From: Naegleria gruberi
Taxonomy: Eukaryota
NCBI GenBank assembly: GCA_000004985.1
Contig: GG739559.1
Direction: 5' to 3' (one strand)
Length of the DNA: 1,104 nt
Positions 108 to 1,091 of this stretch are shown here, piece by piece. The position numbers and the translations under genes are program-made. Numbering within the stretch: position 1 is the stretch's first letter; every line of letters begins with the position of its first letter. The notes under the pieces are model-generated. The model was not told where the DNA came from, ran no database searches, and saw nothing but the letters and a program-made list of their open reading frames with translations.

Positions 108-217
108 AGAATATGTTGGTTACTGATTGTTTATAAGGACTTTTTCAGTTATAAATCTGGAGTATATCATCACGTTTCTGGAAGAATGGTTGGTGCACAT
201 GCCATCAAGATTGTTGG
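108..217 (+). CDS. Cathepsin B-like (papain family C1) cysteine peptidase, internal exon carrying the active-site His region; 5' boundary uncertain and the gene continues upstream of the window
   Basis: Reading the frame whose codons begin at positions divisible by 3 (open from 108) gives [37 protein letters not shown]. This matches the cathepsin B block ...[32 protein letters not shown], including the GxHAI(R/K)I(L/V)GWG signature around the catalytic His. Read without splicing, the frame hits a stop at 252-254. Confidence 0.75.
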
Positions 218-265
218 GTATGTTTTTTTATATTGTTGCAAAATTGTGAAATAACTCTATAATAG
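218..265 (+). other. Spliceosomal intron 1 (48 nt), GTATGT...TAG
   Basis: It begins with GTATGT exactly where cathepsin homology breaks (after ..IVG). It ends ...ATAG immediately before homology resumes (GWGVD...). The length is 3n and it contains an in-frame TAA. A possible branch point is ATAAC about 12 nt before the AG. Confidence 0.6.
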
Positions 266-327
266 ATGGGGAGTTGATTCTGCTTCAAAACTTCCTTATT
301 GGATTTGTGCTAATTCATGGGGAGAAG
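266..327 (+). CDS. Cathepsin B-like cysteine peptidase exon (catalytic Asn/Trp region)
   Basis: Translates with a split Gly codon gg|a as (G)WGVDSASKLPYWICANSWGE. This matches cathepsin B WGVENGTPYWLVANSWN(T/E)DWG. The NSW motif contains the papain-family catalytic Asn. Confidence 0.7.
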
Positions 328-384
328 GTTTGTTTTCTATTTTATTGTCGTTTATCAAGTATTAATCAAAATGTTTGAAACAAG
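328..384 (+). other. Putative intron 2 (57 nt), GTTTGT...CAAG
   Basis: The unspliced frame reads ...WGEGLFSILLSFIKY* with a stop at 363-365. Splicing g|GTTTGT...ACAAG|at restores ...NSWGE-DWG..., which is the conserved spacing of NSWGxDWG. The length is 3n. Support is weaker than for intron 1 because only a 3-residue match follows the junction. Confidence 0.35.
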
Positions 385-410
385 ATTGGGGACTTGAAAA
401 CAGAATGTAA
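385..410 (+). CDS. Cathepsin B-like peptidase, putative terminal exon (DWGLENRM*), stop TAA 408-410
   Basis: After proposed intron 2 the frame reads DWGLENRM then TAA. The expected C-terminal GYFRI...CGIE segment is not found in any frame downstream, so the gene looks truncated (see findings). Confidence 0.35.
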
Positions 411-420
411 AAAAAATATG

Positions 421-432
421 AAAATGACAAAA
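421..432 (-). terminator. Pol III oligo-T terminator of the tRNA gene
   Basis: The minus strand immediately after the acceptor stem reads TTTT G TCA TTTT, so a T4 run begins at the discriminator. A second T4 run follows, and a T6 run lies further on at plus 411-418. Confidence 0.6.
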
Positions 433-520
433 GGCGACTGAGGGAATTGAACCCTCGACCCTCAGTTATCTCAGCATTTCTGCCTACAAGACTGATGCAC
501 TGCCACTGTGCTAAGCCGCC
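432..520 (-). tRNA. tRNA-Thr (anticodon UGU) with 17-nt intron; nuclear Pol III-type gene
   Basis: Minus-strand sequence: GGCGGCT-TA-GCAC-AGTGGCA-GTGC-A-TCAGT-CTTGTA[GGCAGAAATGCTGAGAT]A-ACTGA-GGGTC-GAGGG-TTCAATT-CCCTC-AGTCGCC-T. Acceptor stem is 7 bp with one G-U. D stem is 4 bp. Anticodon stem is 5 bp. The variable loop is 5 nt. T stem is 5 bp with a TTCAATT loop. A box is TAGCACAGTGG and B box is GGTTCAATTCC. U33 and A37 are in place. The loop CTTGTAA is the same as in vertebrate tRNA-Thr(TGT). The discriminator is U. Intron lies at plus 468-484 and the anticodon at plus 486-488. Confidence 0.85.
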
Positions 521-544: not shown

Positions 545-557
545 TATATTTATAAGT
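545..557. promoter_or_regulatory. TATA-like element in the divergent tRNA / DUF4116 spacer
   Basis: On the minus strand, TATAAATA sits at -34..-27 relative to tRNA position 1. This is the TATA placement used for tRNA genes in several eukaryotes. On the plus strand the same tract, TATATTTATAAG, lies about 60 nt upstream of the ATG at 615, where a Pol II TATA would be expected. Confidence 0.35.
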
Positions 558-614: not shown

Positions 615-1091
615 ATGACAACACATTGCACAATTTTGCTTTTAGATTCAAACTGTTCATCACGAATTTTACGAGAAAAATATGACCTGGAAAGAAAGGC
701 TCTCAAGGCAATTCCCTTCTTTTCCGAAATTGCCCAACTATTCGAATTTGATCCGATCATGTATGGACTGGCATTGGAGAGGATGAAGTTGGATAATTTA
801 TTCATCTCTGAGTGTATGAGAAACAATGAAGAGATTATGCTGAAGGCTATCCGATTGGATTTTTGTAGAATTTATGATGCAAGTAATGAATTGAAGAAAA
901 ATCGAGAATTTGTGATGAAGGCTTTGAGAGTGAATGGGAGAGCTTTTGAACTGATGGTAAACGAGTTGCGAAACGATCAAGAATTGGTACGATTGGCTAT
1001 TGAGAATGGATGTGGAGATGCCTTGGAGTTTGCAAATGAAGATCTTAGGTCTGATAGAGAATTAGTGTTGAAGCTATCAGAAATTCGATGA
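615..1091 (+). CDS. DUF4116-type repeat protein (uncharacterised), 158 aa, stop TGA 1089-1091
   Basis: Uninterrupted ORF with an A-rich context before the ATG (acaaaaaaaATGa). The C-terminal 88 aa form tandem units: NEEIMLKAIRLDFCRIYDASNELKK / NREFVMKALRVNGRAFELMVNELR / NDQELVRLAIENGCGDALEFANEDLRS / DRELVLKLSEIR*. These match the DUF4116 hallmarks L-x-x-D and NGxAL, with a conserved E-h-V-h-K-A-h between them. A degenerate unit DLERKALKAIPFF lies at aa 24-36. Confidence 0.8.
   Translation: MTTHCTILLLDSNCSSRILREKYDLERKALKAIPFFSEIAQLFEFDPIMYGLALERMKLDNLFISECMRNNEEIMLKAIRLDFCRIYDASNELKKNREFVMKALRVNGRAFELMVNELRNDQELVRLAIENGCGDALEFANEDLRSDRELVLKLSEIR

Follow-up and report, generated by a model that had tools for sequence, protein, structure and literature searches.

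Does this stretch of Naegleria gruberi DNA carry a threonine tRNA gene that is interrupted by an intron, and, if so, how would the intron be removed and does this copy of the gene work? The sequence under study (the window) covers the whole of a 1104-bp contig, unplaced within the N. gruberi nuclear genome; it is AT-rich, with a G+C content of 35%. The GT–AG introns of the gene fragment that flanks the tRNA gene, together with the N. gruberi origin of the contig, indicate a nuclear eukaryotic setting.

We conclude that the minus strand from 520 to 432 is very probably a nuclear, Pol III-transcribed N. gruberi tRNA-Thr(UGU) gene with a canonical 17-nt intron located one base 3' of the anticodon. 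In other words, both the nuclear tRNA gene and its protein-spliced intron are of a standard type, and the isoacceptor and the lineage are ones for which such introns have not been discussed.

The tRNA gene and its intron

The Rfam model of tRNA (RF00005) matches the minus strand from 520 to 432 over its full length (model positions 1–71). The score is 58.5 bits, twice the gathering threshold of 29, the E value is 7.9e-12, and the alignment treats the extra bases as inserted into the anticodon loop. When introns are enabled, ARAGORN predicts a tRNA-Thr(tgt) at c[431,521], 74 nt long after splicing, with a 17-nt intron, 'ggcagaaatgctgagat', whose insertion position is 37-38. The interval 431–521 includes one fortuitous A–T pair of the acceptor; the gene proper is 520→432. 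The coordinates, strand, anticodon, intron sequence and intron position that the initial annotation had proposed are all correct according to these two programs, and its reading of the gene holds in essence; in its intron mode, ARAGORN calls the expected Thr(tgt), interrupted at 37/38 by the 17-mer GGCAGAAATGCTGAGAT.

The gene, its anticodon, the position of its intron and its promoter and terminator motifs are directly observed. They are listed below in window coordinates, with the basis of each assignment in brackets.

432 to 520, minus strand: tRNA-Thr(UGU) gene with its intron, 89 nt, with +1 at 520 and the discriminator U at 432 (Rfam, ARAGORN)
485 to 520, minus strand: 5' exon, tRNA positions 1–37 (ARAGORN, sequence, fold)
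486 to 488, minus strand: anticodon UGU (ACA on the plus strand), between U33 and A37 (ARAGORN and sequence)
468 to 484, minus strand: intron, 17 nt, GGCAGAAAUGCUGAGAU, between positions 37 and 38 (ARAGORN; Rfam insertion)
473 to 484, minus strand: predicted intron hairpin, pairs G.U, G-C, C-G and A-U with a GAAA tetraloop (MFE and centroid fold)
470 to 473, minus strand: U G A G of the intron, at −6 to −3 relative to the 3' splice site (can be paired with G35, U34, U33 and C32)
432 to 467, minus strand: 3' exon, tRNA positions 38–73 (ARAGORN, sequence, fold)
503 to 513, minus strand: Box A, internal Pol III promoter, TAGCACAGTGG (from the sequence)
443 to 453, minus strand: Box B, GGTTCAATTCC (from the sequence)
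409 to 431, minus strand: candidate Pol III terminator T-runs (from the sequence; putative function)
547 to 554, minus strand: TATAAATA, −34 to −27 from the tRNA start (from the sequence)

The 5' exon comprises the acceptor GGCGGCU, the D arm GCAC/AGUGGCA/GUGC, the anticodon stem UCAGU and CUUGUA of the loop. The 3' exon comprises A38, the anticodon stem ACUGA, the variable loop GGGUC, the T arm GAGGG/UUCAAUU/CCCUC, the acceptor AGUCGCC and the discriminator U. The spliced tRNA is 72 nt long and all of its 21 stem pairs are standard, including one G.U, so that the cloverleaf has no mismatch. The usual invariant bases are all present (U8, A14, G18G19, A21, U33, A37, G53-T54-T55-C56, A58 and C61), as is the G15/C48 pair. 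The spliced anticodon loop is CUUGUAA (7 nt), and the variable loop GGGUC makes the molecule a class I tRNA. The assignment of the gene as a Thr isoacceptor rests on the anticodon and on this class I shape, both read from the DNA, and is in this sense a probable one.

The consensus of Box A is TRGCNNAGTGG and that of Box B is GGTTCGANTCC. Both boxes of the tRNA-Thr(UGU) gene agree with the Pol III consensus and, with the T-runs, give it the organization of a type 2 gene. The T-runs are TTT at 431–429 (TTTT if the discriminator is counted), TTTT at 424–421 and T8 at 416–409; the last of these overlaps the stop codon of the convergent cathepsin-like neighbour. On the other side of the gene, TATAAATA may be an upstream promoter element or plain AT-rich spacer, and we gave this TATA-like motif no weight because the spacer is so AT-rich.

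The cloverleaf was also examined by comparison with other Thr(UGU) genes. A long exact pattern made of the two exons had no match in JGI metagenomes. A relaxed pattern, based on the anticodon arm, retrieved 30 metagenome and 6 viral loci, which together with the window represent 18 distinct 72-nt Thr(UGU) sequences; 16 of these, including that of the window, were aligned. The 17 other distinct genes all measure 72 nt, have a 5-nt variable loop, and have the same anticodon loop as the Naegleria gene (17/17), but none is a close relative of it (51–59 of 72 positions identical). Over the 16 aligned genes, 98.2% of the cells of the cloverleaf pairs are paired, compared to 81% in shuffles, and double-sided changes occur at 11 pairs. 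The covariation score is 0.488 versus 0.142, a value reached by none of 500 shuffles, and the register-shifted controls all score far lower. It is important to note that the anticodon arm is invariant by design of the search and uninformative in this respect; the acceptor, D and T stems are the independent evidence.

Folding and probable processing of the precursor

The foldability of the precursor is likewise a direct result. The MFE structure of the 89-nt molecule (−33.6 kcal/mol, z = −2.16) keeps the cloverleaf, and with it the mature domain, intact and uses the anticodon stem of the intron model, with pair probabilities of 0.84–0.92. The intron folds into a hairpin (G.U/G-C/C-G/A-U, GAAA cap) whose pair probabilities are 0.90–0.98. 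The GCA-GAAA-UGC mini-hairpin that had been noticed by eye in the letters is thus predicted by the calculation (0.91–0.98), with one additional G.U pair. The 3' splice site is predicted to be single-stranded, its flanking bases being unpaired with probabilities of 0.98 and 0.99; A37 is predicted to be unpaired as well (0.97), and the first base of the intron to be usually paired, in the G.U at the foot of the hairpin.

A strict bulge–helix–bulge motif (hBHBh') can be drawn around the splice sites, in which all pairs are standard or G.U and each cut falls after the second base of a 3-nt bulge. On its 3' side, the anticodon stem is followed by the 3-nt bulge A-U|A, which bears the 3' cut. The central helix has 4 bp (C32-G, U33-A, U34.G and G35.U). 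On the 5' side, the 3-nt bulge U-A|G bears the 5' cut and is followed by a 3-bp helix (G-C, C-G, A-U). The initial annotation had pointed to this geometry as a thing to look for: the cloverleaf is kept, the 3' splice site is unpaired and the motif is drawable, its strict form having an energy of −29.6 kcal/mol, 4.0 above that of the MFE structure. A version with a 3-bp central helix has −31.5 kcal/mol, which is 2.1 above. Within the motif, C32 and G(−3) are complementary and could form an anticodon–intron (A-I) pair, with a predicted probability of 0.05; such a pair is known from eukaryotic pre-tRNAs (PMC4090602). The folding model gives both the A-I helix and the strict BHB a minor share of the thermodynamic ensemble.

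The possibility of drawing a strict hBHBh' is rare by chance: out of 200,000 shuffles of the intron that preserve its composition, 0.19% allow it, as do 0.06% of random 17-mers at the composition of the window. We read this compatibility as a sign that the intron is probably shaped for splicing; it does not follow that the Naegleria enzyme would need the motif.

An alternative pairing, between UCAG of the 5' strand of the anticodon stem and CUGA of the intron, had been suggested to compete with the proper stem. The complementarity exists, but not the competition: the pair probability is 0.000 and the fold in which this helix is forced has −28.4 kcal/mol, 5.2 above the MFE. We rejected this helix on energy, and consider it negligible in the precursor. 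The proposed pairing has its origin in the pentamer CUGAG, which occurs twice, 9 nt apart, on the minus strand (470–474 and 461–465); one copy is the 3' end of the intron, and the other is the 3' strand of the anticodon stem plus one base. This duplication could be a trace of the origin of the intron, or a coincidence.

The intron is located exactly at 37/38 and it is short (17 nt), as are canonical protein-spliced introns (TSEN/EndA-type). The group I introns found in anticodon loops of bacterial and organellar tRNAs measure a few hundred nucleotides and have a catalytic core. A self-splicing group I intron was discarded here, based on the length of only 17 nt and on the results of an Rfam scan (E ≤ 1), which finds no intron family in the window.

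From these features we infer the transcription of the gene, the cleavage and ligation of its precursor, and any role of the intron. Pol III would start via the internal A and B boxes and stop in the T-runs just 3' of the gene. The 89-nt body would adopt the usual cloverleaf, its anticodon arm being lengthened by the GAAA-capped hairpin of the intron. TSEN, the tRNA splicing endonuclease, would then cut after A37 and before A38, at sites set by their distance from the mature domain, and the C32:G(−3) pair would assist it by presenting the 3' site in a 3-nt bulge. The two halves would be joined by tRNA ligase to give the 72-nt tRNA with the loop CUUGUAA. This mature tRNA would read ACA, plus ACG by wobble.

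For the endonucleases of eukaryotes, distance from the mature domain is the main measure, although a BHB can be used by them as well (PMC4090602). One may propose that the Thr(UGU) intron is a conserved trait, specific to Naegleria or to Heterolobosea, and that its near-perfect BHB geometry reflects splice-site recognition of an archaeal-like, motif-dependent kind, or else a modification in the anticodon loop that depends on the intron. We consider this proposal as a whole to be improbable. The alternative to motif-dependent recognition is that the usual ruler mechanism operates on a neutral intron.

Neighbouring genes and the status of this copy

The contig contains a gene fragment, the tRNA gene and a small gene for a repeat protein, a content which suggests repeated or hard-to-assemble sequence. 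The two neighbours of the tRNA gene are the following.

129 to 410, plus strand: cathepsin-B-like fragment of the papain family (Peptidase_C1), convergent with the tRNA gene (Pfam PF00112, E 3e-15; homologues, alignment, tblastx)
615 to 1091, plus strand: DUF4116-repeat protein NAEGRDRAFT_55032, divergent from the tRNA gene (100% identity and coverage to XP_002667961.1 / EFC35217.1; PF13475, E 2.5e-28)

The exons of the cathepsin fragment extend up to 217, from 266 to 327 and from 385 to 410, with the stop codon TAA at 408–410; they are separated by GT–AG introns at 218–265 (48 nt) and 328–384 (57 nt). The closest relatives are cathepsin-B-like proteins, including a partial protein from N. lovaniensis (78% identity). 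The fragment ends with WGLENRM*, and homology does not extend past WGL, whose distance to the tRNA 3' end is about 37 nt; the C-terminal 25–30 residues or so of the homologues (WG-x-x-GFF-x-I..RG..ECGI) are absent. The initial annotation described a convergent protein-coding gene at a distance of 21 nt. Its orientation and distance hold (stop codon at 408–410, tRNA end at 432), but the gene is not intact, since it is truncated at its C-terminus. From the alignment, this neighbour is best described as a truncated cathepsin-B paralogue, which may be a pseudogene or mark a rearrangement breakpoint beside the tRNA gene. We also considered a cathepsin gene that runs past the tRNA, the latter being within a spliceosomal intron, and rejected it: no downstream frame encodes GFFxI..RG..ECGI.

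The first intron of the fragment splits a stretch that is contiguous, according to tblastx, at an N. lovaniensis locus (L001, 147–452) and at an ENA metagenome locus (L002, 4078–4353); since both are contiguous at this point, the intron looks copy- or lineage-specific. The similarity to these two loci stops just before the second intron, about which neither is informative. Both loci were examined for synteny, and there is no tRNA near their cathepsin homologues.

The other neighbour, NAEGRDRAFT_55032, corresponds to the longest ORF of the window, and its start codon lies 94 nt from the 5' end of the tRNA gene. A pyrimidine-rich sequence at 633–644 on the plus strand, ...TTTTGCTTTTAG, which comes after the annotated ATG (615), resembles a 3' splice acceptor, and the gene model may be incorrect at its 5' end. 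Last, a match to the bacterial antisense RNA HPnc0260 at 331–464 on the plus strand was dismissed (29.9 bits versus a gathering threshold of 59, E 0.85); its best-scoring part overlaps the 3' end of the tRNA gene, on the opposite strand.

Explanations other than a functional, intron-containing tRNA gene have to be weighed. By default, ARAGORN disallows introns, and it then reports a single gene in the window, a 91-base Thr(tgt) on the minus strand (431–521), which would correspond to an intron-less tRNA with a long variable arm. The likelihood of this is close to nil. In such a model the anticodon stem has to accept an A.A mismatch and a U.G pair, and the variable region has to reach 22 nt, which is a much poorer fold than the one with an intron; Rfam puts the extra bases inside the anticodon loop, the MFE structure contains the anticodon stem of the intron model, and the variable loop of the other Thr(UGU) genes is uniformly 5 nt long. 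It is the class of Leu, Ser and Sec tRNAs that has long variable arms. It is also very improbable, if slightly less so, that the element is a chance cloverleaf or another tRNA-like element (the head of a SINE, for instance, or a tRNA of viral or organellar origin). Nothing specific favours this idea; the anticodon arm is shared by Thr(UGU) genes of giant-virus MAG contigs, some of which have introns of 13–14 nt. Against it, the full-length match to the tRNA model has a far too small E value for a chance cloverleaf, and the flanks are N. gruberi nuclear genes. We rejected a giant-virus origin in particular, since there is no special similarity (the identity to the viral copies, 52–58/72, is no higher than that to intronless metagenome copies, up to 59/72) and since the known Naegleria giant virus, Naegleriavirus, encodes no tRNAs (PMC11043551).

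The main residual doubt, which is a small one, concerns the expression of this particular copy. It could be non-functional, as a pseudogene or a dispersed tDNA repeat, with a 17-nt insertion that is never processed, or only unproductively. The contig is a tiny unplaced fragment, and the loss of the C-terminus of the adjacent cathepsin-like sequence suggests a rearranged region, so that this copy could be redundant or decaying; moreover, the 924 tDNAs reported for N. gruberi are a large number for the genome, and many of them may be redundant (PMC2888827). We nevertheless consider a non-functional copy unlikely. There are no mismatches in the four stems, and the invariant bases, both promoter boxes and the terminator are intact. 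The insertion is found exactly at 37/38 and is compatible with a BHB (0.2% or less by chance), which is unexpected for a random disruptive insertion. This flawless structure and the BHB-compatible intron argue that the gene is expressed, or was so until very recently.

Thr(UGU) introns in other systems

In 576 eukaryotic genomes from GtRNAdb, the intron-rich families are Tyr-GUA (more than 90%), Ile-UAU and Leu-CAA, then Arg-UCU and Met-CAU (PMC12168002). The statement of the initial annotation that Thr introns are less usual agrees with such surveys, Thr(UGU) being outside the conserved set of intron-containing tRNAs. Genes with introns represent about 7% of the tRNA genes in animals, 6% in plants and about 50% in fungi (PMC12168002), and in Cryptococcus 92% of the tRNA genes have an intron (PMC4090602); in view of the fungal values, a Thr intron is not exceptional across eukaryotes. 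Canonical eukaryotic tRNA introns measure 6–133 nt and are located at 37/38 (PMC4090602).

In the searchable literature, we found no description of tRNA introns of Naegleria or other Heterolobosea; the only other discobids named in the tRNA-intron surveys drawn on here are trypanosomes, which have tRNA introns. Since one survey counts 924 tDNAs for N. gruberi (PMC2888827), it is very probable that the present gene was already among earlier predictions, where it drew no comment. Taken alone, the gene is of little weight: it extends the record of canonical tRNA introns by one isoacceptor, Thr(UGU), and by one poorly sampled lineage, the Heterolobosea (Discoba). If it is true that every Naegleria Thr(UGU) gene bears this intron, the latter would be a handy lineage marker, and TSEN recognition in a deep-branching eukaryote could be studied on it as a simple substrate.

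Thr(UGU) genes with an intron are also found on giant-virus MAG contigs and freshwater metagenome contigs: L008 2835–2920, L015 6440–6524 (the same as L033 7256–7340) and L025 3668–3754 (the same as L034 116–202). Like the Naegleria gene, these have the same anticodon arm, an insertion at 37/38, a G at position −3 of the intron, a 72-nt class I body and U73. Unlike it, their introns measure 13–14 nt, are unrelated in sequence and give other predicted precursor folds; the bodies are 52–58/72 identical to the Naegleria gene and sit in clusters beside tRNA-Gly genes. These Thr(UGU) genes are mis-parsed by ARAGORN, which calls them tRNA-Ser(tga) and sets the intron at position 34, despite their 5-nt variable loop. 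The lesson for annotation is that tRNA searches which are blind to introns mis-model such genes, as a 91-nt 'long-arm' tRNA here and as Ser(tga) in the viral case.

The archaeal hBHBh' introns, which are processed by EndA, resemble the Naegleria intron in that the same succession of elements can be drawn (helices of 5, 4 and 3 bp, the first being the anticodon stem, with a 3-nt bulge between each and the next). The differences are that the host is a eukaryote, that G.U pairs make up half of the 4-bp central helix, and that the motif lies 4 kcal/mol above the MFE.

The closest parallel to be drawn with reference cases is with the introns of the yeast tRNA-Phe(GAA), tRNA-Tyr(GUA) and tRNA-Ile(UAU), which depend on TSEN (Sen2/Sen34/Sen15/Sen54) and a ligase. 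Like these, the Naegleria intron is short and is inserted at 37/38; complementarity to the anticodon loop is present, the C32:G(−3) pair is possible, and the 3' site is predicted to be single-stranded. The mature domain is intact, and the intron splits the Pol III boxes A and B. Contrary to these cases, the isoacceptor is Thr(UGU), which is outside the intron-rich families, and the host is a heterolobosean.
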